Of a stretch of DNA of 64,000 bases, positions 938 to 62,660 are shown in pieces. A program made the translations under genes and the position numbers. How positions within the stretch are numbered: position 1 is the first letter of the stretch; every line of letters starts with the position of its first letter. Origin of the DNA: a virus. Taxonomy: Duplodnaviria > Heunggongvirae > Uroviricota > Caudoviricetes. Below the pieces are notes generated by a model that did not search any database, was not told the origin of the DNA, and worked only from the letters and a program-made list of their open reading frames with translations. Location of the stretch: IMG/VR virus record IMGVR_UViG_3300021387_001477, one strand, 5' to 3'.

Positions 938-939
938 TA

Positions 940-5480: not shown

Positions 5481-5650
5481 AAAATAAAGGGAGGAACTTA
5501 ATCCTCCCTAAGGGTGCGGCAAATCCACTGGCGTACATCTGGGCCTGAATAGTACCGGCGTGGCTGCGGGCGGTGGTGTATAACCAGGGCCAAGCGTCTT
5601 CGGGTGCCGGTTTTGCGCAAAGGTTGGGGTAGGGCCACAACGCCATGTCG
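5481..5650 (-). ncRNA. candidate small RNA or structured attenuator leader: GC-rich ~170-nt promoter-to-terminator unit
   Basis: Promoter core CATATATAAGG (5657-5667, minus orientation) then atypically GC-rich segment, ending in hairpin GGGAGGAACTTAATCCTCCC + T-run immediately before ATG of 4880..5473; only R/P-rich spurious ORFs. Confidence 0.4.
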
Positions 5651-5670
5651 CATCCTCATATATAAGGATT

Positions 5671-6171
5671 TCAGGGGTTTTGAATTTCCTGGCACTCTTT
5701 ATATCCATATCCTTTTCTTAGAATATTGAGTGGGATTTGCTTTAAATATCCCACAAAATATATTATAGAAAATATTTCAAATATCTGAGGAATTTCTACT
5801 AGCGGTTTCCATTTTGAACCCTCCCCAAGCTTTGCAGAAAAATCTAAAAGGCTTCGTTCTATTCGTTCACAGTTGGTCCGAGTATTGTATATATACTTAC
5901 TATCGGTTGTTATATGTGGCACACTTTCCATTTCATATTCGAGTTTTATACACCGCTCTTCTACTAGTTCTGTAACTAAATAGAATTCTCCGGCTCCATT
6001 TTTAAAGTCTTCTAAAATATCTGGGCATATTTGGAGAATAGAGGGTAAGTACAGTAGATCAATTTCTATAAGATATCCCTCAGTATACTCTACTATCCCT
6101 AGAGAGATTTTAAATGCCCACATATCTACTTTGTTAGAGATTATTCTTAATGATCTTATTTTAATCATCAC
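5671..6171 (-). CDS. hypothetical protein
   Basis: 166-aa ORF, typical AT-rich codon usage. Confidence 0.5.
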   Translation of the reverse strand: MMIKIRSLRIISNKVDMWAFKISLGIVEYTEGYLIEIDLLYLPSILQICPDILEDFKNGAGEFYLVTELVEERCIKLEYEMESVPHITTDSKYIYNTRTNCERIERSLLDFSAKLGEGSKWKPLVEIPQIFEIFSIIYFVGYLKQIPLNILRKGYGYKECQEIQNP

Positions 6172-6192
6172 TTATAAGAAAAGAAAGGGGAC

Positions 6193-6402
6193 CTATAGTC
6201 CCCTGGTTATGTCATAGGTATTCCATGGAGTTCGAATTATTCTCCATGAGTCCCTATAACTATTAATAACACCGATAACAACACTTGATCTTTCTTTTCT
6301 TGGAATTAATAATACTCCAAGAAGCCCTATTGTATATTCCAGTAAAAAACATACCGGCCACATAATTATACAATAGGCAAGTTTAAAAATATTTTTTATC
6401 AT
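6193..6402 (-). CDS. small membrane protein (start corrected to internal Met; tracked ORF start overlaps promoter motif)
   Basis: ORF 6193..6432 begins ATGCCTTATATATG which is the promoter core; hydrophobic 69-aa product from MIKNIF. Confidence 0.45.
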   Translation of the reverse strand: MIKNIFKLAYCIIMWPVCFLLEYTIGLLGVLLIPRKERSSVVIGVINSYRDSWRIIRTPWNTYDITRGL

Positions 6403-6418
6403 AGCTTTGTTGTTTATA

Positions 6419-6429
6419 CATATATAAGG
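6419..6429 (-). promoter_or_regulatory. conserved phage promoter core CCTTATATATG (minus orientation)
   Basis: Motif plus upstream TTTTTTTTCCGTCTCATA element; preceded by hairpin terminator of upstream gene. Confidence 0.55.
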
Positions 6430-6638
6430 CAATGAAAAGATATGAGACGGAAAAAAAAATAAGAGGGCTTATATAATACCCTCCTCAAACATAAATAAAG
6501 CCTTTCATAGATAAAAAAAAAGACTTCTCGCTGGATCACTCGTTTATCACAGGCACTTCTCTCTTCATCATAATCTCTCTCCTCTGTCCTGCTTCGGTTC
6601 CATTCCACACGAAGTCTTATAATATTTATATTTCTTTA

Positions 6639-6649
6639 CATATATAAGG
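6639..6649 (-). promoter_or_regulatory. conserved promoter core (minus orientation)
   Basis: ACATATATAAGGG + GACGGAAAAAAAAA + hairpin AGGGCTAACGTAGCCCT (terminator-promoter cassette). Confidence 0.5.
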
Positions 6650-6692
6650 GTTTGAAGGAATTATAGACGGAAAAAAAAAGAAAGGGCTAACG

Positions 6693-6863
6693 TAGCCCTA
6701 ATCTTTTAAGCTCTAAATATAAATTCAAGCCCACTTCTAAATCTATCACTTGATCATAGTCAGGACAGGTACAACAACCGACCATTCCTTTATAGTCTGG
6801 CATCCCATCCTCAAAAATTTTTTCTGTAGGGTTTATTCTGCTTTTGTAATATCCACAGTCCAT
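6693..6863 (-). CDS. small Cys-rich protein (56 aa, below ORF-track cutoff)
   Basis: Hand translation MDCGYYKSRINPTEKIFEDGMPDYKGMVGCCTCPDYDQVIDLEV...; follows promoter at ~6945. Confidence 0.35.
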
Positions 6864-7249
6864 ACTATTTTGGTTTTAGTGTGTGTTAAACAAAAAACGT
6901 AAGAGTCTTAACCAAATTTTTCTCTCTAGGTATTCTCTTACAATAATAAGGGTTTGGGGGATTATGAGCGGTAAAAAATCTAGCACCATATAAATAATAA
7001 AAAATAGAAAAGATCGTAGTTGTCTTCTCTATTTCTTTCTTCGTAAAAAATAACCACCGCCTATACTTTTGGCAGTGGTTTAAGTTTCTACTCCTTATGG
7101 TACACTCACTTTTTCTTACGTATAAGATATTCCAGCATGTTAACTGGGATAAGCTGCTTGGCCAATAATACAGCTTTCTTATTATAAGGTGGTTCCATCT
7201 CTCAGGAAGTAGAGTTAGTTTTGTTAAATTTTCGAAAGATTTTTTATTA

Positions 7250-8742: not shown

Positions 8743-9363
8743 TTACATCCAAGAGTAAGTTCCCGTTTCTCTACGTTTATAATTGTAGAAAGTCTGAGCA
8801 CATCTATCCATATCACCAGTTCTGTAATTATTTAATCTATTCCAATCCCATGCATTAGATTGAATAAAGTACATGATGGCGGCATTTCGTTTTATACCAA
8901 TATCATTGATGTCAGTGAATCTGTCGTCATACCATCTCCTTTCTAAGTAATGATATAAAAGACCTGATACACGATGTATTCCATGACCATATAGTGCTCC
9001 CTTTATAGACATATCAAATTCAGAGATATCCCATATACTTACTTCAGGATCTACCCGAAGTGGCCAATTATGCCTCAGCATGTTGAAATATTGATTATAA
9101 TGATAATTATATAAGTTCTCAAGACGCTGCTCTTCTTTTCTCTGCTCCTCTTGAATTGCTCTTTGTCGTTCGGCTTCTATTCTTTCAGCCTCTCTTCTCT
9201 TTCTCCTTTCTTCGCGCTCTTTTTCCTTCTTTTCCATCCATGCGCAAAGTTTTGGATTCTTTTTTAGTATTGATCTTCCTGATTTTGTTGCTCCAAGAAA
9301 AACCAAAGTCCCAGATACTAAAATAGTAGTACCAAGACTAATTATTTTTGTTGACGTTTTCAT
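8743..9363 (-). CDS. hypothetical membrane-anchored/secreted coiled-coil protein
   Basis: N-terminal hydrophobic segment, EKEREERRKRREAERIEAERQR coiled coil; promoter 9381-9391. Confidence 0.5.
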   Translation of the reverse strand: MKTSTKIISLGTTILVSGTLVFLGATKSGRSILKKNPKLCAWMEKKEKEREERRKRREAERIEAERQRAIQEEQRKEEQRLENLYNYHYNQYFNMLRHNWPLRVDPEVSIWDISEFDMSIKGALYGHGIHRVSGLLYHYLERRWYDDRFTDINDIGIKRNAAIMYFIQSNAWDWNRLNNYRTGDMDRCAQTFYNYKRRETGTYSWM

Positions 9364-11912: not shown

Positions 11913-12323
11913 TTATCTAATTCTTCTAAACCTAACTACGTACTTGCTTTCATCTCTCCTAACTTGGGCCCCTTTTTCTCGAATGAATCTAAGAATTGGA
12001 TGGGTAATCCAGTTAGGAACTAAATCCTCTCGTTTAGTATCACACTCTACTTTAAGATCTTTGCAATTCATAATCTTATCATACATTCTTGTCATTGCAT
12101 ATGCACTCCCCTCAAATTCGATTGTATTTTCATCAATCATTTTCATAGGCATAGCACATTCATATGCATCCCCAGCTAATAGATCAAATAATAACTTAAT
12201 CTTTGGCCCATAACTCGCACAATATGACGTGTAATACTGATCATAGAACTTTCTAATCTCAAATATCTTAGAAGTTGGTACATAGTTTGTATTTGAATCC
12301 GTTATTACTTTATGTTTCCACAA
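11913..12323 (-). CDS. DNA polymerase A, terminal exon (motif C region and C-terminus)
   Basis: CASYGPKIKLLFDLLAGDAYECAMPMKMIDE ~ T7 gp5 LQSAGALICKLW...AYMAWVHDE; ECDTKREDLVPNWITHP ~ T7 DTEGKMGPNWAICH; preceded by intron S-element and G. Confidence 0.65.
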   Translation of the reverse strand: MWKHKVITDSNTNYVPTSKIFEIRKFYDQYYTSYCASYGPKIKLLFDLLAGDAYECAMPMKMIDENTIEFEGSAYAMTRMYDKIMNCKDLKVECDTKREDLVPNWITHPILRFIREKGAQVRRDESKYVVRFRRIR

Positions 12324-12640
12324 AGACTAGACTATATCATTATCCATATTTCAGGATAGATCGCGCTTCGAGAGCAGGACTTTCACCTGATCTCTACTTC
12401 CTTTCAGAATAGTCGTTACACCTTCCATTTCTGGCTTGGCTCGGGATTAGCATGCATTTCTGTTTAGCTTTCCCCGATAGCAAGATTTCTCTCACACCCT
12501 ATATTTCTAGGTTCACGATCTTTTGCACTCTAGAATTACCCCTAGAGGCCACAATTTTACTTATGGACTACAATAATTGGTTGGAGTGGTTGTTTCCAGC
12601 CCTCTTGTATTGATTCACGTATATTATTAAAGAATCCTGA
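12324..12640 (-). mobile_element. group I intron in polA (canonical core); 5' boundary approximate
   Basis: CGGGGAAAGCTAAACAGAAATGCATGCTAATCCCGAGCCAAGCC ... GTGTAACGACTATTCTGAAAGG ... AATGATATAGTCTAGTC ... G| then exon. Confidence 0.55.
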
Positions 12641-12669
12641 GGCCATGATTGAGGCAGTGCCACCTTGTC

Positions 12670-12700
12670 GTTATTACTTTATGTTTCCACAAAGACTAGA
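12670..12700 (-). repeat. duplicate of the 31-nt intron-3'-tail/exon-start sequence CTAGTCTTTGTGGAAACATAAAGTAATAACG (other copy 12298-12328)
   Basis: Exact-looking repeat directly after a second intron S-element but not followed by coding sequence. Confidence 0.5.
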
Positions 12701-12925
12701 TCATATCATTATCCACATTCATGGATAGGCTGCGCTTCGGAATACAGAATTTCACTGTAAACCTACTCCTTTCGGATGATCGTTACACTTTCTCTATCTC
12801 TAGAGCTTAGCACGGGATTGGCATATTATTACTAACTTAGCTTTCCCCGTTAGCAAGATCTCTCACACCTAAGATTTCTTAGTTCACAGCCTGTTTCATA
12901 TAGGATTACTCCTATAAGCTACAAT
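12700..12925 (-). mobile_element. group I intron in polA (canonical core); boundaries approximate
   Basis: CGGGGAAAGCTAAGTTAGTAATAATATGCCAATCCCGTGCTAAGC ... GTGTAACGATCATCCGAAAGG ... AATGATATGATCTAGTC. Confidence 0.5.
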
Positions 12926-13209
12926 TTTATTTATAGGAAGATTCACGCCTAATCTTTCACACCTCGCCTTTAGATTATTCTTCTCTCTGGAATTTGCTTT
13001 TAGCCACAGATCATATTCTTTAATTTTTAATTTATCGCCCATTATTGAATTAATATATCCATCATGGCTAAATGGATACTGTTGTTGAGAGGCCACATAC
13101 TCTCTCAATTTAGGGAAACTTGTATAAAGTCCCTGTATAATATCATCAGCTTCCTCTTCTGAGCAAAATAGTCTTTCAGCCAATGATTTCTTTCCTAGAC
13201 CATAAAGAA
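12896..13209 (-). CDS. DNA polymerase A internal exon (palm: end of motif B to QG region); true 3' splice end near 12926
   Basis: SLAERLFCSEEEADDIIQGLYTSFPKLREYV ~ Klenow [31 protein letters not shown]; ...ARCERLGVNLPIN ~ AAERAAINAPMQG; naive join to micro-exon is out of frame by one nt (see findings). Confidence 0.6.
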
Positions 13210-13464
13210 CCGTTTTGTTATCCTAGAAGTTTTTTTATCTCCTAGCTCTAGTAATTCATTTCTTACTAGTCCAGCATATATTTTCAACTCATATTTTCGA
13301 GTTGGTGGGCTCTCTTGGAAGGATTATATTTATTCACCTTCTATGCGTTACACTAGATTAAAGCCTCTCGCAATCTTTAACCTTAGCACGGGGTTTGGAT
13401 TCTCACCATTCACCGTTTTAGTCCACTTATCATCTATAATATCACTACTATAGACGGCATTTCT
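13210..13464 (-). mobile_element. family-B small group I intron (copy 2), 255 nt
   Basis: GTCTATAGTAGTGATATTATAGATGATAA...ACGGTGAATGGTGAG...GTAACGCATAGAAGGTGAATAAATATAATCCTTCC...GGATAACAAAACG; >80% identical to copies at 13485, 14242, 26113, 29352, 55218. Confidence 0.65.
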
Positions 13465-13484
13465 ACCTAAGAAGACAGTTTTGA
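13465..13484 (-). CDS. polA micro-exon (~20 nt, TCAAAACTGTCTTCTTAGGT) encoding core of polymerase motif B (KTVFLG ~ T7 AKTFIYG)
   Basis: Sits between two tandem family-B introns; with upstream exon gives RKRSF|KTVFLG; exact splice points uncertain. Confidence 0.45.
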
Positions 13485-13739
13485 CGTCTGTTATCCTATA
13501 GGCTTTTTATCCTATAGCTCTATTAGTTCATTTCCTAATAGTCCAGCATATATTTTCATCATTTCTTTTATGATGTCGAGCTCTCGTGGAAGGATTATAT
13601 TCTATTTATAGTTTCACCTTCTATGCGTTACGCTGCTATAGACTCTTTATTTCTATAGTTAGCACGGTATTAGGAATCTCACCCTTCACCGTTTTAGCTC
13701 GATTATCATCTATAGTATCACTACTATAGACGGCCCAAA
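13485..13739 (-). mobile_element. family-B small group I intron (copy 1), 255 nt
   Basis: Same conserved 5' GTCTATAGT..TATAG module, core and 3' GGATAACAGACG. Confidence 0.65.
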
Positions 13740-13740
13740 A

Positions 13741-13830
13741 TGACCTTTTTCTCCACATCTTCTTGTCTTTCTTGTCTAGTTTATCAAATTTATCGCCTAG
13801 ATAGAGCTTGGCGGTATATATATAACAATG
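13741..13830 (-). CDS. polA exon fragment (...TAKLYLGDKFDKLDKKDKKMWRKRS); 5' boundary unknown
   Basis: Open frame upstream of intron B1 ending in R-x-x-x-(F)K that completes motif B with the micro-exon. Confidence 0.35.
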
Positions 13831-13849
13831 TGTTCAGAGAGTGTCGTTA

Positions 13850-14143
13850 CTTCTCTCTGGTTCTCTTATGAACTCCTGTATATTTCTATACAGATCAGAC
13901 TATATCTTCACCTCAATACCGAGGGCTTACCGTTTCCACTACACGAACTTTGTAGTGTACTCTCTTTCGAGATAGTCGTTGGGGTTTTGATACAGAGCTA
14001 GTTAGTCATACTAGCCTTAATTTTATAAATATTTATCAAAACCTGCTGATTGGCCTTATTCTTTGATTTCTTACGGAAGTGACTAAATCTTCTCGTACCA
14101 AAGACTTAACGGGCGTTTCCAGCATTTAGTAAGTTTATTTTTC
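13850..14143 (-). mobile_element. group I intron (family C-like) in polA; boundaries approximate
   Basis: CAACGACTATCTCGAAAGAGAGTACAC ... GAAGATATAGTCTGATCTGTATAGAAATATACAGGAGTTCATAAGAGAACC tail (tail duplicated at 14530-14570). Confidence 0.45.
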
Positions 14144-14144
14144 T

Positions 14145-14241
14145 TGGGATCACTCCCAAGCGATACTTAAATCTAATATCTTCGCCTTTATTAAACTTAT
14201 CAATCAAGTCGGGATCTCCGCTTGCGAAACCTGCAGCTTTT
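14145..14241 (-). CDS. polA exon fragment between motifs A and B (KAAGFASGDPDLIDKFNKGEDIRFKYRLGV...)
   Basis: Follows G of intron B3; resembles Klenow LLTAFAEGKDIH region; ends at 20-nt hairpin repeat CTTGGGAGTGATCCCAAG. Confidence 0.4.
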
Positions 14242-14498
14242 CAGTTATGTTATCCTAAGAGCTTTTTATCTCTTAGTTCTATAGATTCTTATTTATATTC
14301 TCTATAGCTCGGCGTACATTTTTAACTATCGCTAGTTATCGGACACTCTTGGAGATACTATATTTATTCAATCTCTACGCTCTACATTACTAGAGTGCCT
14401 TTCGAAATCACTCTAGTTAACTCGGTATTTAGATTCACACTATTTACCGATTTTGCCCGATTATACTCTATAGTGTTTCCACTATAGACGGCATTTCT
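14242..14498 (-). mobile_element. family-B small group I intron (copy 3)
   Basis: GTCTATAGTGGAAACACTATAGAGTATAATCG...CGGTAAATAGTGTGAATC...GTAGAGCGTAGAGATTGAATAAATATAGTATCTCC...GGATAACATAACTG. Confidence 0.6.
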
Positions 14499-14509
14499 AC
14501 CTCTGCACT

Positions 14510-14741
<232 letters not shown>

Positions 14742-17423
14742 TTAGTTTTTCTTGGGATCACTCCCAAGTGACACCAATAATTTATTTTCAATGTCAAAAT
14801 AAGTTTCAATAAAGTCTTCATCTACTATATTCCCATTCTCGTCAATATGATATGGCGTTCGAACACAATCTTTAAAATCTGCATGACTAACCAAGACATG
14901 GAACGCACTAGACCACCTCTTTGAACTCTTTGTGTTGACCTCATAATGACAAAAGCATTTATGTACTGCTCCTGGCTCATTAGGGTCAGCTTCACGAATA
15001 GGAATATGTTTTTCGTCCTCAATTACCCACTTTCCCTCTTTCAGCATTCCATCAATATAGGTCGATAGAACCTTTGAATATTTTTTGAAGAGCAGATAAT
15101 TGATGACCATTTTTCTCATAAAATAGAATCTGTTATCAAAGTCAGATTCATTGAAGATCTTTCCATAATCTTCATATTGATCAGAAACATACTTAAAGAA
15201 CTGTTCCTGAGCGATATATCCATTAAAGTTACTCCACACCTCTTTTACCTGATCACATCCTAAGTCATTATAGAATTGATCAAACAGGACATATACTTTT
15301 TCTGGATAACTGGTTTGCCCTACTGGAGTTCCTTGATAAAGTTTTGTATAGTTCTCTCCAAAATGAGCAAATCCATCTTCAACTGTTTTTATACCGAGTT
15401 GTTCATAATATTTTTCTGCGCCTGGAAGTTGCTGCGCACTTTCAAACATTGCAGCGAGATATGCAGACTCGGTAGGATACAGTTGAGCAAATTCCAAACA
15501 GATCTCATCATTTTCAATGGGGGACTTACACTTAAAGAAGTTATCCGATACATAATCTGAATAACTAATTAAATCCCATTTTTGTCCAAATGCATAGATC
15601 TCTTGAGGAATGTTTTGTATGTCATTAAGTTGATTCTTTGAGACTTTCATTAACTCATTGAACGCTCTTTCATAATATAGATACTTCTCAAGCTCTATGT
15701 GTTTGTCATTTATCTTTATTTTATCTAGTCCGATTATAGGAATTAGTTTATCTCCCAAGACCTGTTGGATCTTCTTCTTTCCGCCAATTCCTGAATCAAT
15801 CTTAGACTTCAATACTTTCTGACCTGTTTTCTTATAGAGTTTTATCATTCCTACCTCTTCCATTGCTTCTCTTAGGACTTTCATAAAATTGGTAGCAAAG
15901 TCTGGACCATACTTCATTAATAATTGGCCCTCGTTTATACCAAGTTCATAAGCATCCATAGTATCAACATTAGAAGTCAGAAGATACTTAGCTATTTCAG
16001 CCGGATTTCCATTAAAGAAGGTATTATCATGCAGCAGTTTCTTGGCAATATCAGAATAATTATCTATATTTGCCATCTTTTTCTTGTGCTTATCCATCTT
16101 TATTTTACACCTAGCTTCACTACAAAACGTAATGCTCCACGCAATCATCTCTTTCGACTTCTTTTCATACTCCAATCTAAATGGCTCGTCAATATATAGG
16201 CCACAATTATGAAGTCTGGCGCCCAATCTTGCATTATCCATAAAGGTTCTAATACAATCTTCAGAGAATTTATCTTTCTCTACCAGATGTATCATAAGAG
16301 TATAGAAAGCGTCAAGATTACAATAATACCCTAATATTTCTGATGGAACACACATAAATGAACTCTTGTCCCAGTATTCAAGTATTAAAGCTTCAAATTC
16401 ATTTATATAACTTGGGTATCTTGCGCATATCTCAGCCCATTCCGGAGTTGTTTTAAAATCAGAGGGAGTAATTTTTAGAACTTTCTTCTTATCTTTCTTA
16501 AGTTTCCCTACTTCTTCATAAAACATGCTTTCAACAAGATCTGAGATTCTGTCAAACTCGGTATCCCAGACAGTAGCCTGAAGTATCATTTGGGCTGACC
16601 ACTTTAAGGAATATTTCTTTAAGTGATTTCCCTCAATGACATTATAAACAGACGCATCTATAAGATTATATAGGTCTACTCCAAACATTCTATGAGATAC
16701 GGCCTGTTCATATTGCATATTATAAGTTACAAGATGACTCTGCCTATGATTCAAAAAATCTCCAAATCTTTTACATATCATTCCGTATTGTTCAGGACTA
16801 CATGTATGTCTAAGATCTGTAAAACTTATAAATCCTCCGAAGTTTTTTGTACACAGTGATGCCCCAGATATATCAAACCATACATCCAAAGCCATACCAG
16901 ATGCCTCGAAGTCAAAGCCTAGGTCCTCAGTCTCTGGAAGATTACAAAGCCAGTCTAAAAATTTCATTGCTCCAGTAAAATCATGAATAACTTTACTTTG
17001 GAACCAGGAAAAATCAACGGGCTGTGTAAATCCTGGAGACATAAAATCTCTAATTATGTCTGGAGAAGGAGGATCTAGAACTACCTTAACAAAAGCTCCG
17101 CCCTCTATACTTAACCTTCGAAGTTTGGACACATCGAAGTAATTCTCTGACCTAACCCCAAAGTGATAGAACTGGTTTAGATATCGATAAGGTTCTGCCC
17201 CCACCAACATAACAGCATCACTTGGGCCTAATGTCAGAAACTCTCTTTTTGCATCATCGGACATAGATTCAATATTCTCAACCGTAAAGATCTGAGATGA
17301 ATCCAGCCCTATTCCATAATAATCCACCACGTAATTTGGTGTTTCTTTAGCTGAAATTAATACAAATCGTTTGTTCATAAATCTAAATATTAATATACCT
17401 TTGAGCCGATATCTTACATACAC
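14742..17423 (-). CDS. DNA polymerase A exon 1 (N-terminal region incl. 3'-5' exonuclease-like domain, no polymerase motifs A/B/C)
   Basis: 893-aa ORF; GFDFEASGMALDVWFD exo-like block; last codons overlap the 20-nt hairpin repeat so true 5' splice site may lie slightly upstream of the stop. Confidence 0.65.
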   Translation of the reverse strand: MYVRYRLKGILIFRFMNKRFVLISAKETPNYVVDYYGIGLDSSQIFTVENIESMSDDAKREFLTLGPSDAVMLVGAEPYRYLNQFYHFGVRSENYFDVSKLRRLSIEGGAFVKVVLDPPSPDIIRDFMSPGFTQPVDFSWFQSKVIHDFTGAMKFLDWLCNLPETEDLGFDFEASGMALDVWFDISGASLCTKNFGGFISFTDLRHTCSPEQYGMICKRFGDFLNHRQSHLVTYNMQYEQAVSHRMFGVDLYNLIDASVYNVIEGNHLKKYSLKWSAQMILQATVWDTEFDRISDLVESMFYEEVGKLKKDKKKVLKITPSDFKTTPEWAEICARYPSYINEFEALILEYWDKSSFMCVPSEILGYYCNLDAFYTLMIHLVEKDKFSEDCIRTFMDNARLGARLHNCGLYIDEPFRLEYEKKSKEMIAWSITFCSEARCKIKMDKHKKKMANIDNYSDIAKKLLHDNTFFNGNPAEIAKYLLTSNVDTMDAYELGINEGQLLMKYGPDFATNFMKVLREAMEEVGMIKLYKKTGQKVLKSKIDSGIGGKKKIQQVLGDKLIPIIGLDKIKINDKHIELEKYLYYERAFNELMKVSKNQLNDIQNIPQEIYAFGQKWDLISYSDYVSDNFFKCKSPIENDEICLEFAQLYPTESAYLAAMFESAQQLPGAEKYYEQLGIKTVEDGFAHFGENYTKLYQGTPVGQTSYPEKVYVLFDQFYNDLGCDQVKEVWSNFNGYIAQEQFFKYVSDQYEDYGKIFNESDFDNRFYFMRKMVINYLLFKKYSKVLSTYIDGMLKEGKWVIEDEKHIPIREADPNEPGAVHKCFCHYEVNTKSSKRWSSAFHVLVSHADFKDCVRTPYHIDENGNIVDEDFIETYFDIENKLLVSLGSDPKKN

Positions 17424-17472
17424 GGCTCAGATATAAGGAAAAGAGAATATTGGGGAAGCAAAATTCTTATAA

Positions 17473-17937
17473 TTGAATGATATGAAAATCAAAAGTGTAG
17501 TAGACGTAATTACAAACTCAAGTACAGAGGTTTTTATAATGAAACTTTCTGACTATAATGAAATGAAGGCTGAAATTGGAGAACTTGAGCCGAAGATTTC
17601 TAAATTTAATATATTTGAAACCATAAATGATGTTCTTGATTATTCCGAAAGATATAGCAGGCCAGATTTTGGTTTAATACCAGGGAAGTATGAATTATCG
17701 GACAGAACGAGAAAAATTTTAAAGGATTTTGGCCATTCTGAAGAAGAAATCGATAATTATATAAACAAGAAGCAGAAGGAAAAAAGAGAACTCCTAAAGG
17801 GTAATGAAAAATATAAAAATCTGGTTGGTACTGCAGCATTGGCATCTGATCATTGTGGAGGCTTAGGAAGAAACAGTCTCGTCGATAAATGGATGGAAGA
17901 ACACGGGAAAACTTATATAAGACGAGAATATGACTAA
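17473..17937 (+). CDS. hypothetical protein
   Basis: 154-aa ORF. Confidence 0.5.
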   Translation: MNDMKIKSVVDVITNSSTEVFIMKLSDYNEMKAEIGELEPKISKFNIFETINDVLDYSERYSRPDFGLIPGKYELSDRTRKILKDFGHSEEEIDNYINKKQKEKRELLKGNEKYKNLVGTAALASDHCGGLGRNSLVDKWMEEHGKTYIRREYD

Positions 17938-18355
17938 CGAAGAGCTTAAACGATATCCTAAAACTCATCAGGAAGGAGATATTGTCTATTTCGTAATTCT
18001 ACTCTATGACTCTTTCCGCCCGTACAAAAAGCCTGGAGGAATATTAGAGCTACATTATAAATCATCCGGTGATAGTGGAATGATAGTTTCTGAGGATGTA
18101 GGTTCATTGATAAAAGAAACTATCTCAGGAAATTTTATATGGTATGGCAGTAAGAACAAAATATCAAATATATCAAGTTTATTTGGGACTAAAGAAGAGG
18201 CACAGAAATATTTCGATAAACTTAAAAGACGATATAAAGGAGAAATTAAGAGGTACCGAACTAGAGCCTTAAATAAAATCAAAATGTTGGAGAAAGAAAT
18301 AGAATCATTAAAAAAGGAGATTAAAATTTGTGATGATATATTGAAATGTATATAG
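17930..18355 (+). CDS. hypothetical protein
   Basis: 141-aa ORF, overlapping start/stop with neighbours. Confidence 0.5.
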   Translation: MTNEELKRYPKTHQEGDIVYFVILLYDSFRPYKKPGGILELHYKSSGDSGMIVSEDVGSLIKETISGNFIWYGSKNKISNISSLFGTKEEAQKYFDKLKRRYKGEIKRYRTRALNKIKMLEKEIESLKKEIKICDDILKCI

Positions 18356-18834
18356 TTATTAATAATATTCCAATCAAGGACAGTAGTATTAAGGAAATTT
18401 CTAAGATACAGAAGCTTGACTCAAAACTATATAAGAATTTGGTACATAATCTTTTCAAGTATCCGAAATTTGATGTAGACAGATGGCGAGAGGGTCAAAA
18501 TTATGACTGTTATCAAAATGATGTTCTTAGGTATCTGGATAATTTGATAAAAGCTAATCCAGATTATGTTTATGGAAGCTGTACTGATGGGATACTTACA
18601 GTTCGGGGTATAGATATGACGTTACCAAATTTATACAATAGGCCAGAAACAGCATTCATAGATTCGATTCGGATTAATTGGAAAAATATGCCAGAATTAT
18701 ATTTTTATACTCTACAAACTGAATCAACCACTTTCTTATCTCAAATATATTTTTCAAAGGAAGAGGCAGAAAATAGTCAGGATAAATTATTAAATATATT
18801 AAATGATGGTGTCTTATTTAAAATTTTGCTCTAA
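18346..18834 (+). CDS. hypothetical protein
   Basis: 162-aa ORF. Confidence 0.5.
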   Translation: MYIVINNIPIKDSSIKEISKIQKLDSKLYKNLVHNLFKYPKFDVDRWREGQNYDCYQNDVLRYLDNLIKANPDYVYGSCTDGILTVRGIDMTLPNLYNRPETAFIDSIRINWKNMPELYFYTLQTESTTFLSQIYFSKEEAENSQDKLLNILNDGVLFKILL

Positions 18835-18861: not shown

Positions 18862-19194
18862 ATGAAAGAAAAATATAAACCAAAAAAGCCTTGGGAGAGA
18901 TTACAGGATGGTGAAACATTCGTAAACTCTGAACCAGGGAATTCAATGACACCTATTCTAAAGAGTAGGCAGAGAGTAGTATTAGCCCCGACAACATGGG
19001 AAGACGTTGAAATAGGGGATATTGTTTATGCTAAAGTTGCTGGTAGACATTATACTCACAAAGTAACTGGCAAAAATGAGAAAAGAGGTGTCCAGATATC
19101 AAATAATCATGGACACGTAAATGGGTGGACTAAAAATGTCTACGGAAAAGTTATTAAAATCCTAGATGATGATGAAGTCTGGGAAGGGGAATAG
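18862..19194 (+). CDS. hypothetical protein
   Basis: 110-aa ORF. Confidence 0.5.
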   Translation: MKEKYKPKKPWERLQDGETFVNSEPGNSMTPILKSRQRVVLAPTTWEDVEIGDIVYAKVAGRHYTHKVTGKNEKRGVQISNNHGHVNGWTKNVYGKVIKILDDDEVWEGE

Positions 19195-20027: not shown

Positions 20028-20771
20028 TTAATTTTCTCTGCCAATGAAAATTTTAGCTATTTTCCAGGCCTTGTCAGAGAGTTTAAATAGATACTTGTCA
20101 TCGTTATAATTAGGATCCATGATGTCTTTTATAATCTTGGTTCCTAGGATCTCTCTCACTTCTTCACATGCGTCGTGATAAGCTTGGAGATATAAACTCG
20201 ACTCTATTACTTCTCTTGGCGCGTTCTTATAGCATTCAAGATATTTCAATTCTTTTGGTTCGTTTATATCTTCTTCACTCTCCTCCAATACTCCTTCAAT
20301 TCGCCGGTAAAGAAATCCGAGTTTACCAGAATAATCATAAGGGCTGTAGTTATCTGGCACATATTCTAATGGACTAGAAAAAGTAGGTCTTGATACTTTC
20401 CATTGATTTCCACACCCCTTACACTCATTCACTCTAAAGGATTCTAGGTCTGGTTCTTCATCGGCCGAATATGAAAAGCTATTCTTAGAGAGTTTCTGGC
20501 CAAAGACGTATTTATTTATCACATCTTCGCAACCACACTTAGGACATTTAGAGTTTTTGGCTTCACACTCTTTTATATCTTTCCCCATACTCTCTTTCCC
20601 AAGCTTTTCTCTTTCGGCCGTATGTTTTTCCAGCCAAGAGTTAATTAAATTCTTTCTATACTCTTTTCTCTTTTCAACCTCCCACTTTGCTTTTTTCAAC
20701 TCAGCCTTTTTCTTCTCTTCCTTCTTAGCTTTTCTTCTTTTAATTCCAAACCAATCTATCATAACGAACAA
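20028..20771 (-). CDS. hypothetical zinc-ribbon protein
   Basis: CPKCGCED...CKGCGNQW; Lys/Glu-rich N-terminus. Confidence 0.5.
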   Translation of the reverse strand: MFVMIDWFGIKRRKAKKEEKKKAELKKAKWEVEKRKEYRKNLINSWLEKHTAEREKLGKESMGKDIKECEAKNSKCPKCGCEDVINKYVFGQKLSKNSFSYSADEEPDLESFRVNECKGCGNQWKVSRPTFSSPLEYVPDNYSPYDYSGKLGFLYRRIEGVLEESEEDINEPKELKYLECYKNAPREVIESSLYLQAYHDACEEVREILGTKIIKDIMDPNYNDDKYLFKLSDKAWKIAKIFIGREN

Positions 20772-24544: not shown

Positions 24545-24617
24545 GTCCCAGTAGGCAAGTGATTAAGCCAAGAATCTGCAAAATTCTTAATCGTTGGTTT
24601 GAATCCAGCCTGGGACT
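24545..24617 (+). tRNA. tRNA-Cys (GCA)
   Basis: Acceptor GTCCCAG/CTGGGAC, anticodon stem AGAAT/ATTCT loop CUGCAAA, T-arm GTTGG/TTTGAAT/CCAGC. Confidence 0.7.
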
Positions 24618-24762
24618 CTTTCAAAATAAATGACAACAAACACATTATCGACAACATATGAAAAGAATTTATTTTTTCGGCTAGGTACTAGGTATCGAAG
24701 CCGTGTGTGTCGAGATTAGTTTTACGCCTCCATAATTTTAGATTTAGTAAACTTTCAAAATC

Positions 24763-25537: not shown

Positions 25538-25593
25538 CGCCCTGAACACCCTTTCCTTGGTTGTGGGGACCTAGAGTCAAACAACCAGGCTAT

Positions 25594-25665
25594 GATCCAT
25601 TAGTTCAACGATAGAACAACTGTCCCTAAAACAGCACGTTGTCGGTTTGAATCCGACATGGATCA
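25594..25665 (+). tRNA. tRNA with anticodon CUA (amber-suppressor-like; anticodon loop CCCUAAA with C33 and a 27-43 mismatch)
   Basis: GATCCAT-TA-GTTC-AACGATA-GAAC-A-ACTGT-CCCUAAA-ACAGC-ACGTT-GTCGG-TTTGAAT-CCGAC-ATGGATC-A; otherwise canonical 72-nt cloverleaf. Confidence 0.5.
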
Positions 25666-25702
25666 CAAAGGACCTAAAATCCTTATAAAAGAAAATAAAT
25701 AA

Positions 25703-25775
25703 GCCTCAGTAGATCAATTGGTAGATCAAATCACTTGTAATGATTAGGTTGCGGGATCATACCCTGCCTGAGGCT
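25703..25775 (+). tRNA. tRNA-Thr (UGU)
   Basis: Acceptor GCCTCAG/CTGAGGC, anticodon stem AATCA/TGATT loop CUUGUAA, T-arm GCGGG/ATCATAC/CCTGC. Confidence 0.75.
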
Positions 25776-25783
25776 CAGAAAAT

Positions 25784-25857
25784 GGGCTCGTAGTTCAATT
25801 GGTAGAATTCCTGATTTGCATTCAGGGGGTTTGGGGAATCGTGCTCCCCCGGGTCCA
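25784..25857 (+). tRNA. tRNA-Ala (UGC) with G3:U70
   Basis: Acceptor GGGCTCG/CGGGTCC (G3-U70 wobble), anticodon stem CCTGA/TCAGG loop UUUGCAU. Confidence 0.65.
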
Positions 25858-25878
25858 CAATCGAAACAAAATAACAAC

Positions 25879-31024: not shown

Positions 31025-32992
31025 ATGAACAGTTTAACTACTATGCTGATCATTATTGCAGCAATTGTTGTAATGGTGATTCTGACTGTCTGGGGAATTC
31101 TCAGTCGGTACAAAAAGGTGAAGTCTGATGAGATCCTTGTGGTCTACGGTAAGACGAAAGGCAATTCTTCGGCAAAGTGCCTGCACGGAGGTAGTTCCTT
31201 CATATGGCCTATTATCCAGGGGGCTACCGTGATGTCAACTAAGCCAGTGACGATTCAGTGCAATCTTCAGGGAGCAATTTCTAGCCAAAAGATTAAGGTA
31301 AATGTTAACACAACAATTACCGCGGCGATATCTACTGTTCCTGAGATTATGCAGAATGCGGCTGTTCGTCTTTTAACGATGTCGCCGTCTGAGATTGAAG
31401 GACAAATTAAGGATGTTGCGTATGGACAGCTTCGTCTTATCATCGCTACACTAACTATTGAAGAGTTAGTGAATGACAGGGAAAAGTTCCTTCAGGCATG
31501 TAAGACTGGTATTGACGAAGAGCTGAAGAAATTTGGTCTGACTGTGCTCAATGTAAACTTGTCTGAGGTTTCCGACGAAGGGAACTATCTGGAGAATCTC
31601 TCTAGAGACGAGATCGCAAAAGCTGCCGCAGTAGCTGAGGCAAGTATTGCTGCCCGCGAAAAAGAGGGCGCCACAAGGACGGCAGATCAGAAAAAGCAGA
31701 AGGAGGTACAGCTCGCTCAGATTGAGAAGGACAAGCAGATTCAGGTTGCTGAAAACCAGTCTGAGCAGGCTACGCGCACTGCTGAGATCTCCAAAGAGAA
31801 GAATACTAAGGTCTCTGAGCAAAAGAAAGAGGAGACCGTAAGAATCCGTGAGATCCAGAAGGAGCAGAGCGTTGAGACTGCTAATCAGGAGCAGGAAGAG
31901 GCAATTAAGCTGGCCGAAATCGAGAAGATCAGAGAGGTTGAGATCGCAACCAAAGAGTCTGAACAAAAACAGGCAGTTGCAGAGCAGAACCGTCTTCGCG
32001 ATACTGTTATTGCTGAAAAGAAGGCTGCTACTGTATCTAGCGTAGCAAAAGCAGAAAATGATGCAGAAGCTACGAAGGCAGAAGCTGAAAAGGCTAAAGA
32101 GGCTCGTATTGTCGCTGCCGGACACCTGGCTGAACAGAATAAGAAGAAGGCAGAACAGGAGAGAGAAGCCGCTGAGTCTGAGTTTGAAAGTTCTCGTCGT
32201 CAAAGAGCGGCTGATGCTGAAAAGCAGGCAAAGATCAGCGAGAATAAAGCAGGTATTGAAGTAGCTAAGTCTGATGCTGTTCTTGGTAAGGAGAAAGCTG
32301 AGGCAGAGAAGGTCATTGGTGAATCTGAAGCCGCTGCTGAGAAGGCTATTGGTATCGCCAAGGCTCAGAAAGACAAAGAAGTTGCTCTTGCCCGCGCTGA
32401 AGCTAAGAGAGCAGAACTCGAAGCTGATCTGATCTCTGGCGCTGAGAAGGAAGCCGAGAGAAAGAAAGTGGAGGCTGAGGGTATCAAGAACAAGATCACG
32501 ATCGAGGCTGAGGCTGAGGCTGAGAAGATCCTGGCCATCGCAAAAGCAGAAGCAGAGAAGATTCGTCTCACTAAACTTGCTGAGGCTGAGGGTGAACTGA
32601 GAATGGCCGAAGTTAAGAAGGCTCTCGGTCAGGCAGAAACTGAGAATATCGCCAACATGGTCCGCGCCGGGCTTGGCGAAGCTGCTGCCATCTCCTTCAT
32701 TCTCAGAGATAAGTATGAGGGAATCATCGGTGCAGAGCAGGCCAAGTTCGAGCACATCAATCTCGGCGAAGTTAAGGTTGTCGGTGATGCTTCACAAGCC
32801 TCCAGTTTCCTTACCAAGATCGTCGACGGTGTTCAGAAGTCTAGTGTTCTTGGAGACCTGATTCCCGGACTTACTGGTCTTCTTGCTGCTGGTACAAAAT
32901 TCGACCAAAAGCAGTTGAACGGCACAAAGCCCGAAGATCCAAAACCGGACGATAAAGGCCCGAAAAACAACCCTAATTCTGAAGAAGAATAA
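31025..32992 (+). CDS. SPFH/band-7 flotillin-like protein (YqiK-like) with long Ala/Glu/Lys coiled coil
   Basis: N-terminal TM, SPFH block VVYGKTKGNS...IWPIIQGATVM...IKVNVNTTIT, then ~400 aa AEAEAEKI-type coiled coil. Confidence 0.7.
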   Translation: MNSLTTMLIIIAAIVVMVILTVWGILSRYKKVKSDEILVVYGKTKGNSSAKCLHGGSSFIWPIIQGATVMSTKPVTIQCNLQGAISSQKIKVNVNTTITAAISTVPEIMQNAAVRLLTMSPSEIEGQIKDVAYGQLRLIIATLTIEELVNDREKFLQACKTGIDEELKKFGLTVLNVNLSEVSDEGNYLENLSRDEIAKAAAVAEASIAAREKEGATRTADQKKQKEVQLAQIEKDKQIQVAENQSEQATRTAEISKEKNTKVSEQKKEETVRIREIQKEQSVETANQEQEEAIKLAEIEKIREVEIATKESEQKQAVAEQNRLRDTVIAEKKAATVSSVAKAENDAEATKAEAEKAKEARIVAAGHLAEQNKKKAEQEREAAESEFESSRRQRAADAEKQAKISENKAGIEVAKSDAVLGKEKAEAEKVIGESEAAAEKAIGIAKAQKDKEVALARAEAKRAELEADLISGAEKEAERKKVEAEGIKNKITIEAEAEAEKILAIAKAEAEKIRLTKLAEAEGELRMAEVKKALGQAETENIANMVRAGLGEAAAISFILRDKYEGIIGAEQAKFEHINLGEVKVVGDASQASSFLTKIVDGVQKSSVLGDLIPGLTGLLAAGTKFDQKQLNGTKPEDPKPDDKGPKNNPNSEEE

Positions 32993-36336: not shown

Positions 36337-37887
36337 ATGCTAAAAGAAAAAGTATTATATTCATTGCGGGATATTTCTATAATTCCCGCAGTATCGACTA
36401 GTATTAGATCAAGAAAAGAATGTGACCCCTATAGAAAAAGTATAGAGGGAGAACCCGGATGGTACCCTTTGATTGCCTCTCCTATGGACTCTGTTATGGA
36501 TGATACGAATTGGAAATATTACTGGGATAATAAAATATCCTGTGTTATTCCAAGATCTATCCCACAGAGTTACCAAGAAAAAGGGTATGAGGATGGAGGA
36601 TATGAGGCTTGGTTTGAAGAAAGGAGAAAATTATGCTCTAAGGTATTTTGTGCATTTAGTTTGAAGGAAGCTAAGTGGTTCCTGGATAACTCTTATGACT
36701 ATAGTGATAAAAGCTTTAGTGATGGCCTGAGGATTTATGTCTTAATTGATATAGCCAATGGTAGTATGCAAGAGGAGATAGACCTTGGAAAAGAACTAAA
36801 GAGGAAGTATGGAGAAGGAATAATATTAATGGGAGGAAATATTGGAAATCCCCAGACGTACCTTCTTTATGATCAAGCCGGGTTTGATTTTCTTAGAGTG
36901 GGAATCGGAAGCGGACAGGGGTGTTTAGCCGGAAATACTAAAATTCCCATGTCTGATGGAACTACAAAGAATATAAAGGACTTAGTTGTTGGCGATCATA
37001 TTAAGACTATTACAGGAGACCAAAGAGTCAATGAGATTATACAAAATACCTCTGATCAGTTAGTAACAATAAATAAAGAACTGACATGTACACCAAATCA
37101 TAAATTATTTGTAATTGACAAAGACAACGGGGATCTAGTGACTAAAGAAAATATAATTTCCTTAGGACATTATGTAGAGGCTGGAGACCTAGATAAGGGG
37201 AAACATTTATTAGTCAAATTAAAGACGGAAAATTTAAAGGAAAAACTTAATAACAATATAGGATTTAATAACCCCTATAAAGCAATGGATTTTAGGCTTG
37301 AAGAAATAACCTCAATAGAAAAGATTGAAAAAGCCGTATCTACGTTTGATATAGTAGTTTCCGGAGAAGAGCACTCATTTATTACAGAGGATGGATATAT
37401 CGTTCACAACTGCCTAACTTCCACCTCAACGGCAATCCACTATCCTTACGCATCTCTGATAAGTGAAATATCTGAAATGAAGGATAGATATCATAGTCAC
37501 TGTAAAATTATAGCCGATGGAGGAATGGCATGGTATAGCGATATAATTAAGTCTCTTGCCCTTGGTGCTGATTATGTTATGTGTGGAAAAATATTCTCAC
37601 AGGCAGCAAAGACACCAGAAGAAGTAGGCCAGACATTGGTATATCGAGGAATGTCTACTAAAGCTGCTCAGGCTGGGATGGGGAATACAGGAACTCTTAA
37701 GACCGCCGAAGGAAAGAGTATGGAAGTCGTGAAGGAATATACTCTCTCGGGGTGGACGGAAAACTTTGATTCTTATCTCAGAAGTGCTATGTCCTATTGT
37801 GACTCTAGATCATTGAAAGAATTTAGGGAAAAGGCCATATGTCAGGTTATCTCTCCGAACGCCTCTTCACAAATAAATAATAAATAA
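36337..37887 (+). CDS. GMP reductase/IMP dehydrogenase-family (GuaC-like) protein interrupted by a mini-intein
   Basis: VGIGSGQG-C[intein]-LTSTSTAIHYPYASLISEI and IIADGGMAWYSDIIKSLALGADYVMCG match IMPDH/GuaC active-site loop and ADGG/ALGA motifs; extein ~353 aa. Confidence 0.6.
   Translation: MLKEKVLYSLRDISIIPAVSTSIRSRKECDPYRKSIEGEPGWYPLIASPMDSVMDDTNWKYYWDNKISCVIPRSIPQSYQEKGYEDGGYEAWFEERRKLCSKVFCAFSLKEAKWFLDNSYDYSDKSFSDGLRIYVLIDIANGSMQEEIDLGKELKRKYGEGIILMGGNIGNPQTYLLYDQAGFDFLRVGIGSGQGCLAGNTKIPMSDGTTKNIKDLVVGDHIKTITGDQRVNEIIQNTSDQLVTINKELTCTPNHKLFVIDKDNGDLVTKENIISLGHYVEAGDLDKGKHLLVKLKTENLKEKLNNNIGFNNPYKAMDFRLEEITSIEKIEKAVSTFDIVVSGEEHSFITEDGYIVHNCLTSTSTAIHYPYASLISEISEMKDRYHSHCKIIADGGMAWYSDIIKSLALGADYVMCGKIFSQAAKTPEEVGQTLVYRGMSTKAAQAGMGNTGTLKTAEGKSMEVVKEYTLSGWTENFDSYLRSAMSYCDSRSLKEFREKAICQVISPNASSQINNK
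36922..37410 (+). mobile_element. mini-intein (163 aa, no homing-endonuclease domain) in the catalytic Cys loop of GuaC-like protein
   Basis: Begins CLAGNTKIPMSDGTTKNIKDLVVGDHI (Hint block A), ends ...FITEDGYIVHN followed by extein Cys. Confidence 0.6.
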
Positions 37888-45135: not shown

Positions 45136-45798
45136 ATGCCTAATGATGTTATTTTAAATTCCAACGGTGTTGTAGTTGAAAACATCGGTTGGAACAAAAG
45201 ATCTGCAGATTTCTTAATTCAGAAGTTTATTAATGTGATCGATCAAGATCCTGAGTATAAACTTTCTGACGAGGAAATTGCATCAAATCCTGCTACCGCT
45301 ATTAGCAATGCAACTCCCGAGGTACTTTTTGTCGGAGAGTGGGGTAAACTGGCTGTTAAAGTTGTGCCATTTATCGCTGGAACTCCGAACCTTGTCTGGG
45401 AAAGTTCTAACCCTGCCGTCTTAGTTATTACTTCTGATGGTCATTTCAGAGCTCTTGCTACCGGAACTGCTACCATCACTGCCACGGATATTAATAATCC
45501 TGAAGTAACTATGGAAGCCAGTATCGAAGTTATTGCTGCTCTGACTAAGGCCACCGTAACTCTCGACAAAGAAGAGGCTAGTGTTGTAGTTGAAGCAACT
45601 GCACAACTTACCGCCGAGACTAACTCTACCGCCACTATTATTTTTGAATCTAGTGATGAAGAGGTAGCTACTGTAAGTGAGGAGGGTCTGATTACTGGTG
45701 TTGCTGCTGGTACTGCTGTTATCACTGCCAAGGTAGAGGCTGAAGGTAAATATACTTCTGCCGAAGCAACTTGTGCTGTGACCGTAACTGCAGAGTAG
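45136..45798 (+). CDS. Big_2 (bacterial Ig-like) domain protein, probable virion surface/structural protein
   Basis: Two repeats of ...VITSDGHFRALATGTATITATD / ...EGLITGVAAGTAVITAKV type. Confidence 0.55.
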   Translation: MPNDVILNSNGVVVENIGWNKRSADFLIQKFINVIDQDPEYKLSDEEIASNPATAISNATPEVLFVGEWGKLAVKVVPFIAGTPNLVWESSNPAVLVITSDGHFRALATGTATITATDINNPEVTMEASIEVIAALTKATVTLDKEEASVVVEATAQLTAETNSTATIIFESSDEEVATVSEEGLITGVAAGTAVITAKVEAEGKYTSAEATCAVTVTAE

Positions 45799-47091: not shown

Positions 47092-47661
47092 ATGCTACAA
47101 ATAAATGAAAGAATTCTAGTATTATCCCCAGGTGATCAAATTCCCCAAGTTTCTGGAGATTCTATTAAATTATACTTAGCCGGAACTACAGATTTTGGCT
47201 CTGCCGAGAATGATTGGCAAGGTAAGTTTATAGACGGTCTTGTAAAACTGTCTGATCCACTGAAAGGATTACTTCTCATAAAGAACGTAAATTGGATTAT
47301 CTTCAACCCTAAGGCTCTTCCTACTAATGATATGGGTCCTTCTCTTGAAAATCCAGAGTTTGTAAATAATATCAGGTGGAGATTAATGGCACAAGATCAG
47401 GCAGATATGATTTTCTTGAATATCTTGAAAAAGTCTGTATCACCAATTCCAGTCTTAGAGTTTGGTTCTATGGTAACTTCCGGAAAGCTAGTTGTTCGGT
47501 GCAGTGAAGAGTATCAAATCTATCCACAAATTAGACTATATTGTGAAAAATTCCAGGTACCTCTTCTCACAGGAAAGACTAGTGTAAAGGATGTTATCTT
47601 AAGTGGAGGAAACTATATACAAAAATTCAGAGATCTTCAACAATATAATCTTCCTGAGTAA
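47092..47661 (+). CDS. hypothetical protein
   Basis: 189-aa ORF. Confidence 0.5.
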   Translation: MLQINERILVLSPGDQIPQVSGDSIKLYLAGTTDFGSAENDWQGKFIDGLVKLSDPLKGLLLIKNVNWIIFNPKALPTNDMGPSLENPEFVNNIRWRLMAQDQADMIFLNILKKSVSPIPVLEFGSMVTSGKLVVRCSEEYQIYPQIRLYCEKFQVPLLTGKTSVKDVILSGGNYIQKFRDLQQYNLPE

Positions 47662-57173: not shown

Positions 57174-57206
57174 AGAGGGATTTAATTTCCCTCTTTCTTC
57201 TTTTTA
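57174..57206 (+). terminator. bidirectional intrinsic terminator (AGAGGGATTTAATTTCCCTCT + T-run)
   Basis: Hairpin between convergent genes. Confidence 0.55.
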
Positions 57207-62653: not shown

Positions 62654-62660
62654 ATATGTG

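Follow-up and report, generated by a model that had tools for sequence, protein, structure and literature searches.

Transfer RNAs with the amber anticodon CUA have been described in phages that use the standard genetic code as well as in phages that have reassigned TAG. Suppressor tRNAs are found in standard-code relatives of recoded phages, where they may represent a step that precedes recoding (bioRxiv 10.1101/2021.08.26.457843). This raises the question of why a phage with the standard code would keep a suppressor of stop codons: the Xanthomonas jumbo phage XacN1 has two tRNAs with anticodon CUA, and in-silico read-through of its 18 amber stops gave its authors no targets (PMC5852040). Here we describe a 72-nucleotide tRNA gene with anticodon CUA (hereafter the CUA tRNA) at positions 25594–25665 (+) of a 64,000-nucleotide stretch of DNA from a tailed phage (IMG/VR record IMGVR_UViG_3300021387_001477; this whole stretch is referred to as the window). 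It presents a cleaner case of the same question: no other element of its tRNA array, which evolves fast, is as well conserved, and TAG stops are used normally alongside it.

The gene was called by ARAGORN at 25594–25666 (+) with anticodon cta, for which 'Pyl' in the output is merely the program's name. Rfam model RF00005 matches 25594–25665 with 56.8 bits, against a gathering score of 29 (E = 1.4e-9 over the whole window) and within the range of the other tRNAs of the window (47.6–60.8 bits), and the cloverleaf is both the minimum free energy (MFE) and the centroid structure of the 72 nucleotides (−20.1 kcal/mol, z = −2.99). The calls, the fold and direct reading bear out the canonical cloverleaf and the anticodon CUA in a loop CCCUAAA, both of which the initial annotation had proposed. 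The stems (7/4/5/5) and 7-nucleotide anticodon loop are those of an elongator tRNA: direct reading gives an acceptor stem GATCCAT/ATGGATC, linker nucleotides U8 and A9, a D stem GTTC/GAAC with the 7-nucleotide D-loop AACGATA, A26, a 5-nucleotide variable loop ACGTT that includes G46, a T stem GTCGG/CCGAC with the T-loop TTTGAAT, and the discriminator A73 at 25665; CCA is not encoded. The nucleotides of the tertiary interactions—U8, A14, G18, U54, U55, A58 and the pair G53-C61—are all there, and A19-U56 stands in place of G19-C56 as a matched change.

The G18-A19/U56 variant, which lies in the D-loop (25607–25613) and T-loop (25646–25652) of the CUA tRNA, is also present in tRNA-Cys (24545–24618) of the window and in a tRNA-Gly (8795–8866) of the related contig L017. 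The combination of G18-A19 with U56 (T-loop TTTGA...) occurs in several tRNAs of this phage family and looks like a matched replacement of G19-C56.

The anticodon arm carries two departures from the usual elongator pattern. In the anticodon stem (ACTGT/ACAGC), A27 (25619) stands opposite C43 (25635) and is unpaired, and the remaining four pairs are Watson-Crick; the loop reads C32 C33 C34 U35 A36 A37 A38, with C33 at 25625 and the anticodon at 25626–25628. Direct reading permits no alternative register of the stem, and C34-U35-A36 is the only anticodon that fits the 7-nucleotide loop. Position 37 is a purine (A37), as in amber suppressor tRNAs, and the A36-A37-A38 context is that of tRNAs reading U-initial codons. 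U33 is nearly universal in elongator tRNAs, where it forms the anticodon U-turn; the CUA tRNA has C33 in 10 of 10 copies, in contrast to every other tRNA of the arrays, all of which have T33. Both C33 and the A27-C43 mismatch had been pointed out in the initial annotation, and both are real in the sequence and invariant in the 10 contigs that carry the gene.

These contigs were recovered by two routes. A gene for an SPFH protein at 31025–32992 has a graded series of metagenomic relatives, from 89% down to 42% identity, and led to two contigs, L011 (96.6 kb) and L030 (43 kb), which are syntenic with the window and have an identical tRNA at the same site; because they were found without reference to the tRNA sequence, they are free of search-pattern bias. 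A scan of JGI metagenomes with a pattern made of the D-arm and anticodon stem, with all seven loop positions left free, identified seven contigs, and the loop is CCCTAAA in all seven. Across the 10 contigs, differences in the CUA tRNA are confined to the variable loop (ACGTT, ATGTT or AAAGTT), and the acceptor stem, the T arm, C33, CUA and A27·C43 never change.

This invariance stands out against the divergence of the surroundings. Between the same contigs, identity is 96–100% for the CUA tRNA, compared with 63–79% for tRNA-Ala, 62–65% for tRNA-Cys, 63% for tRNA-Thr, 47–73% for tRNA-Gly, 77–93% for tRNA-Glu, 73–74% for the SPFH gene (nucleotide level) and 60–62% for the 60 nucleotides upstream of the CUA tRNA. 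At 75% identity, the chance that all 41 positions that lie outside the variable loop and were not fixed by the search stay identical is about 1e-5 per comparison. The arrays also differ in size, with eight tRNAs in the window (the smallest array, by ARAGORN) and 16–17 in the relatives L019 and L023, and the CUA tRNA is kept in the smallest and largest arrays alike. The invariance of its body amid diverged neighbours and its retention in the smallest array mark the CUA tRNA as a selected, functional RNA on which purifying selection is much stronger than on the tRNAs and genes around it; likewise, invariance among contigs of diverged relatives shows that selection, and not decay, accounts for the anticodon, C33 and the mismatch. 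The more distant relatives (L008, L012–L016 and L026–L028) have no tRNA array beside the anchor gene, and therefore no orthologue with another anticodon was found among them. An origin of the CUA tRNA as a duplicate of another array tRNA was considered and rejected, as the best identity to any array tRNA is at most 68%.

The window corresponds to positions 229,148–293,147, reversed, of the 317,399-bp ENA contig ERZ12302816 NODE_16, which was located through a neighbouring protein; a sister assembly is 318,918 bp. GC content is 35.6%, and 84% of the window is coding under the standard code. The predicted gene content is that of a jumbo phage, with a split T4-type topoisomerase II, a family A DNA polymerase, HNH homing endonucleases, a tRNA cluster, at least six group I introns, one intein, NAD-salvage and nucleotide enzymes, an RNA ligase and PTH2. 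No close relative was found by megablast among 50,697 deposited phage records, and protein-level matches in deposited phages are at most 27.5% identical (topoisomerase) or absent. The CUA tRNA itself gave just T-arm matches to unrelated tRNA-Asp genes in deposited phages, and neither tRNA patterns nor protein queries gave a match in IMG/VR. Its T-arm plus acceptor has no match in the 185,579 representative prokaryotic genomes of GTDB, and therefore no host or prophage copy was found there. One relative is a scaffold from a rumen study ('STEW19'), and among cellular homologues of the SPFH/flotillin protein the closest (37%) belongs to Parabacteroides, a weak hint of a Bacteroidota host. The contig L011 is 98–100% identical to the window around the CUA tRNA, and its SPFH gene is 84–90% identical at the nucleotide level to those of L017 and L019 versus 76% to that of the window; this mosaic pattern points to recombination between lineages.

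Use of TAG was examined in 82.5 kb (26%) of the genome, consisting of the window, 8.2 kb before its start (L005) and 10.3 kb past its end (L024), and in about 170 kb of relatives. Outside the tRNA arrays, the standard code gives a coding density of 84–95%, and reading TAG as sense gives no gain in density or ORF (open reading frame) length beyond that of control analyses in which TGA or TAA was read as sense. TAG accounts for 16 of 85 ORF stops in the window, for 63 of 312 stops across the loci of the family and for 42 of 232 among ORFs of at least 80 amino acids; at 18–20% of stops it is not depleted, and TAA accounts for 55%. Nor is there a sign of backup stops: the next in-frame TAA or TGA follows at a median of 12 codons after TAG, versus 11 after TAA and 9 after TGA (Mann-Whitney p = 0.71). 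The two TAG terminators singled out in the initial annotation are real, since ORFs 17930–18355 and 45136–45798 both end in TAG. The second of these encodes an Ig-like Big_2 protein, which is intact and ends TAG-TTT-TAA.

Two same-strand ORF chains merge across TAG in the window. A TAG-interrupted gene at 937–1641 (−) was rejected because both TAGs lie inside a group I intron at 1168–1434 (−) (45.2 bits, E = 4e-10, a score below the Rfam gathering score); the region is the gp60-like C-terminal part of a GyrB-like subunit, and the intron separates '...RFKG' from 'VGSLDREDV...'. Read-through of 18862–19194 was also rejected, the 67-codon extension looking non-coding. A ClpP-family protein that matches a 'head maturation protease' of the PHROGs (E = 8e-38) is intact and ends in TAG, and read-through would add eight residues; its fusion to the next in-frame ORF was rejected, as several stops lie between. 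This protein may belong to proteostasis rather than head maturation, since an FtsH-like protease adjoins it, and is not a secure late gene. The 538-residue protein P0241 was considered as a portal, an assignment that is unsupported: its homologues fall in PHROG 33734, to which no function is assigned, and the consensus motif looks TerD-like.

No aminoacyl-tRNA synthetase, release-factor or pyrrolysine gene was found among 69 ORFs of the window, and the gene tables of L001, L005 and L024 contain no accessory genes of a code change (release factor RF2 or a cognate synthetase). Throughout the sampled sequence of the phage and its relatives, genes follow the standard code and TAG serves as an ordinary stop. 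The initial annotation, which regarded suppressor tRNAs as the hallmark of recoding, was right to place the window in the standard code, its sole TAG-interrupted candidate being explained by the group I intron; the hallmark reading finds no support in the 82 kb of genome or the ~170 kb of relatives, which contain no TAG-interrupted gene, and the accessory genes that it had suggested looking for did not appear in the window.

On balance, we favor the interpretation that the CUA tRNA, which belongs to the core of the tRNA arrays in this rumen-type family of jumbo phages, is a functional and probably weak amber suppressor, probably charged by a host enzyme with lysine or glutamine. The phage would keep the standard code, as XacN1 does, and the tRNA would not be what drives recoding across the genome. 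The transcript would be processed, receive CCA and then be aminoacylated by a host synthetase, and the charged tRNA would decode UAG. Lysine or glutamine would be the likeliest amino acid, because U35 is the main anticodon determinant for LysRS and GlnRS, following the rules of E. coli; bacterial tRNAs of the Leu, Ser and Tyr types are excluded by the short variable arm. A73 and acceptor pairs 1–5 (G-C, A-U, U-A, C-G and C-G) are the same as in tRNA-Lys(UUU) of L019, which leans towards lysine and could be a coincidence. The replacement of the U-turn uridine by C33, together with the open 27-43 pair, would probably weaken suppression. Weak suppression would explain how the tRNA can be so strongly conserved in a phage that uses TAG stops normally and shows no backup-stop signature. 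Its targets may be a few phage genes, host genes or competitors.

Several considerations weigh against a weak suppressor. In seven of the 10 copies, the search pattern itself dictated 26 of the 72 positions, an ascertainment effect that bears on the apparent conservation. Expression, aminoacylation and UAG decoding are predicted properties, and the amino acid assignment draws on E. coli rules and on one acceptor-stem resemblance that may be due to chance. With C33 at the site of the U-turn, function on the ribosome may be poor or absent. An efficient suppressor should deplete TAG stops, and undepleted TAG fits an absence of suppression equally well. Finally, recognizable capsid, portal, terminase, tail and lysis genes lie outside the sampled 26%, and recoding limited to late genes is possible in the other 74%.

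A related proposal, which we advance tentatively and do not consider probable, is that the invariant C33 and open 27-43 pair together form a selected design, either for attenuated or specialized reading of UAG with a purpose other than recoding, or for a nuclease-resistant or decoy tRNA. Such an attenuated tRNA might permit programmed read-through, at a low level, in one or a few genes of the phage. It might also disturb termination in the host, or interfere with or sense co-infecting TAG-recoded phages, which are common in the same habitat.

It is unlikely that the CUA tRNA is a code-switch device. In that scenario, a code-15-like reassignment of TAG to an amino acid would be restricted to late genes, for structure and lysis, within the 74% of the genome outside the sampled part, and the early and middle genes seen here would remain compatible with the standard code. 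Such a distribution has precedent, as the in-frame stops of recoded phages are concentrated in structural and lysis genes and their replication genes are standard (bioRxiv 10.1101/2021.08.26.457843); the regions sampled here are mostly devoted to DNA and nucleotide metabolism, tRNAs and homing elements, the low GC content (35.6%) and rumen-type setting are those in which recoding is common, and strong conservation fits an essential role. The published route to recoding begins, however, with depletion of TAG (bioRxiv 10.1101/2021.08.26.457843), and TAG stops are undepleted here (18–20%). The nearest candidates for virion or late genes, the Big_2 protein and the ClpP-type protein, are intact and end in TAG, the window has neither RF2 nor GlnRS, and C33 would be odd in a tRNA that has to decode many essential codons efficiently.

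We consider it improbable, too, that the molecule is a tRNA-like RNA that does not decode but acts as a decoy for, or resistant substrate of, an anticodon nuclease of the host or another defence that targets tRNAs, or as a regulator or primer, with C33 and CUA as features of recognition or evasion. C33 is expected to disturb the U-turn that decoding requires, the conserved hairpins that flank the gene hint at a dedicated precursor, and TAG stops have no sign of selection from suppression. Genes of tRNA-repair type are also nearby, namely an RNA-ligase-like gene at 47661–48878 and the RNA_ligase and PTH2 genes of L005, and substitutions in the anticodon loops of phage tRNAs have been proposed to evade host tRNA nucleases (PMC10264068). 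Against this, the stems, the tertiary nucleotides, the variable loop with G46 and A36-A37-A38 are all as in a working elongator tRNA, and the gene is placed within an ordinary tRNA array. A decoy of a sense tRNA should retain the anticodon of that tRNA, and we know of no stop-anticodon decoy.

A reading in which the loop is used differently, so that the tRNA reads a sense codon or UAA through a modified C34 or a loop geometry altered by C33 and the open 27-43 pair, appears very unlikely. Modifications of C34 can shift specificity, as lysidine does in tRNA-Ile2, and tRNA-Gln, tRNA-Trp and tRNA-His are absent from the recovered arrays, a missing isoacceptor that the CUA tRNA might supply; these arrays are incomplete fragments, however, and the missing isoacceptors may be encoded elsewhere. 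The only register that fits the loop, by direct reading and by ARAGORN, is the one given above, no modification enzyme was found in the window, and the reading of UAA, the main stop (55%), would be highly deleterious.

A tRNA-Pyl that inserts pyrrolysine, to which the anticodon CUA, a D-loop lacking G19 and a T-loop lacking C56 might point, is effectively refuted by the two linker nucleotides (U8, A9), the five-position anticodon stem, the 5–6-nucleotide variable loop and the 7-nucleotide D-loop, by the occurrence of the G18-A19/U56 variant in tRNA-Cys and tRNA-Gly of these phages, both of ordinary type, and by the absence of any PylS/PylBCD-type family or class II aminoacyl-tRNA synthetase among the ORFs of the window. 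A decaying pseudogene or chance cloverleaf, of which C33 and a stem mismatch would be typical defects, is refuted by the invariance of the gene across contigs whose flanks and neighboring tRNAs have diverged by 25–40%, and by the Rfam E-value of 1.4e-9.

The CUA tRNA is flanked by two small hairpins. A conserved hairpin CTTGGTTGT...ACAACCAGG at 25556–25589 (+), identified from the alignment and the RNAalifold consensus, ends four nucleotides 5' of the tRNA; three of its pairs are changed on both sides between clades in that consensus, and the loop motifs TGTGG and GTCAAACAAC are invariant. It is possibly an element of precursor processing or expression. Directly 3' of the tRNA is a smaller hairpin, AAGGA-N7-TCCTT, at 25668–25684 (+; alignment and consensus fold), whose stem is invariant in all copies and whose loop varies, with no covariation. 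In all copies of the CUA tRNA, U-1 can pair with A73. No sigma-70 promoter or terminator signals above chance were found around the gene.

The next gene of the cluster is tRNA-Thr(UGU) at 25703–25776 (+), followed by tRNA-Ala(UGC) at 25784–25858 (+), and tRNA-Cys(GCA) lies upstream of the CUA tRNA at 24545–24618 (+); all three were identified by ARAGORN and Rfam. Since no terminator-like site lies between them, tRNA-Thr(UGU) is probably co-transcribed with the CUA tRNA. In L011, the CUA tRNA is followed at 2630–2705 (+) by a tRNA-Thr(UGU)-like sequence that has an odd T-loop and no ARAGORN call, and that differs strongly from the tRNA-Thr of the window at the same position. Two relatives also have a reverse-transcriptase gene (RVT_1, 370–374 amino acids), at 6012–7124 (−) in L011 and at 5622–6746 (−) in L030, situated between a 305-amino-acid ORF and tRNA-Leu; it is absent from that site in the window.

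Introns and other mobile elements interrupt several genes of the window. The family A DNA polymerase gene (11913–17423, −) is split by four group I introns (Rfam, 53.6–78.9 bits) at 12308–12572, 12677–12942, 13876–14185 and 14564–14800; its first exon, of 893 amino acids, is 73% identical to residues 1–871 of the uninterrupted 1179-amino-acid polymerase of L012, and the two diverge exactly at the first intron. Another gene in pieces is that of the GyrB-like topoisomerase II subunit (937–4799, −), which consists of 3126–4799, an exon at about 1435–1641 and an exon at 937–1167. An HNH endonuclease ORF (1818–2981) in this gene adjoins the 3' end of a further group I intron (1688–1800), a weak match of 18 bits. 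The split recalls that of T4 genes 39 and 60, but is made by introns. A paralogue of the HNH protein was looked for on the window's contig, and none was found. An IMPDH/GMP-reductase-like gene at 36337–37887 (+) contains an intein (Pfam Intein_splicing/Vint), and its versions in L008, L011 and L030 are intein-less, with 352–353 amino acids.

Additional genes of translation and proteostasis were noted in the window and its relatives. The 357-kb contig L008 encodes, at 17148–18722, a 524-amino-acid class Ic synthetase of GluRS type (tRNA-synt_1c plus Anticodon_2), which has no tRNA within 10 kb and no counterpart in the window. Genes for translation maintenance are represented in L005 by a PTH2 peptidyl-tRNA hydrolase (17557–17961) and an RNA_ligase-family protein (20044–20736), and the window gene at 47661–48878 encodes a 405-amino-acid RNA-ligase/phosphoesterase-like protein. 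The region from 57182 to 64000, continued by L024 10001–12602, encodes two PcfJ-like paralogues, an FtsH-like AAA+/M41 protease (about 711 amino acids), the 538-amino-acid PHROG 33734 protein and the ClpP-family protease, and is possibly a phage proteostasis module. A 122-amino-acid ORF at 63431–63799 (−) is spurious and antisense to the real gene, which starts at about 62660 on the + strand, runs off the end of the window and encodes 538 amino acids in the full contig.

For annotation, a CUA tRNA alone is no reason for code-15 gene calling. The conserved substitution at the U-turn site suggests an activity that is tuned and probably weak, and if the attenuated or decoy design tentatively raised above were true, these 'stop-anticodon' tRNAs of jumbo phages with the standard code would be a class that is conserved and distinct in function. 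If late genes were recoded instead, a new and deeply divergent jumbo-phage lineage would join the recoded phages, and normal use of TAG stops in early genes would prove compatible with recoding.

Among known systems, tRNA-Pyl shares the anticodon CUA with the tRNA described here. It has one nucleotide between the acceptor and D stems, a 6-bp anticodon stem, a 3-nucleotide variable loop and a very small D-loop, and in the linker, the length of the anticodon stem, the variable loop and the D-loop the window tRNA differs from it. The amber suppressors of bacteria (supE tRNA-Gln CUA and supF tRNA-Tyr CUA of E. coli, and engineered tRNA-Lys and others) have an elongator body, the anticodon CUA and charging by the host, as is proposed here, and GlnRS or LysRS tends to be the enzyme that charges a CUA tRNA with U35. 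Each of these suppressors arises from a sense tRNA by a single mutation and keeps U33; the tRNA of the window, in contrast, has no identifiable sense parent (at most 68% to any array tRNA) and is unchanged across diverged phages.

The recoded phages of gut and rumen—Lak, crAss-like and Garnet/Topaz phages (Borges et al., bioRxiv 10.1101/2021.08.26.457843; jumbo survey, PMC13037316)—have in common with the window phage a CUA tRNA, low GC content, a gut or rumen source and a large genome. Their structural and lysis genes contain in-frame TAG, TAG is depleted among their stops, and RF2 is sometimes encoded, whereas the window phage has no in-frame TAG in 82 kb or in ~170 kb of its relatives, TAG at 18–20% of stops and no RF2 in the window. 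XacN1 is similar in being a standard-code jumbo phage with CUA tRNAs in a large array and an anticodon loop identical at six of seven positions. Its two CUA tRNAs (AP018399, 36047–36122 and 36130–36205) have, as read from their sequences, the loop CUCUAAA and canonical D and T loops, with U33, GG in the D-loop, a TTCGAAT T-loop and an encoded CCA, whereas the tRNAs of the window family have C33, A27·C43, G18-A19/U56 and no consistently encoded CCA; the two phages are unrelated, and their tRNAs are alike just by generic tRNA similarity. The CUA tRNA thus belongs to a known kind, the suppressor tRNA in a standard-code phage, and what distinguishes it is C33 and its exceptional conservation within a phage lineage not described before.

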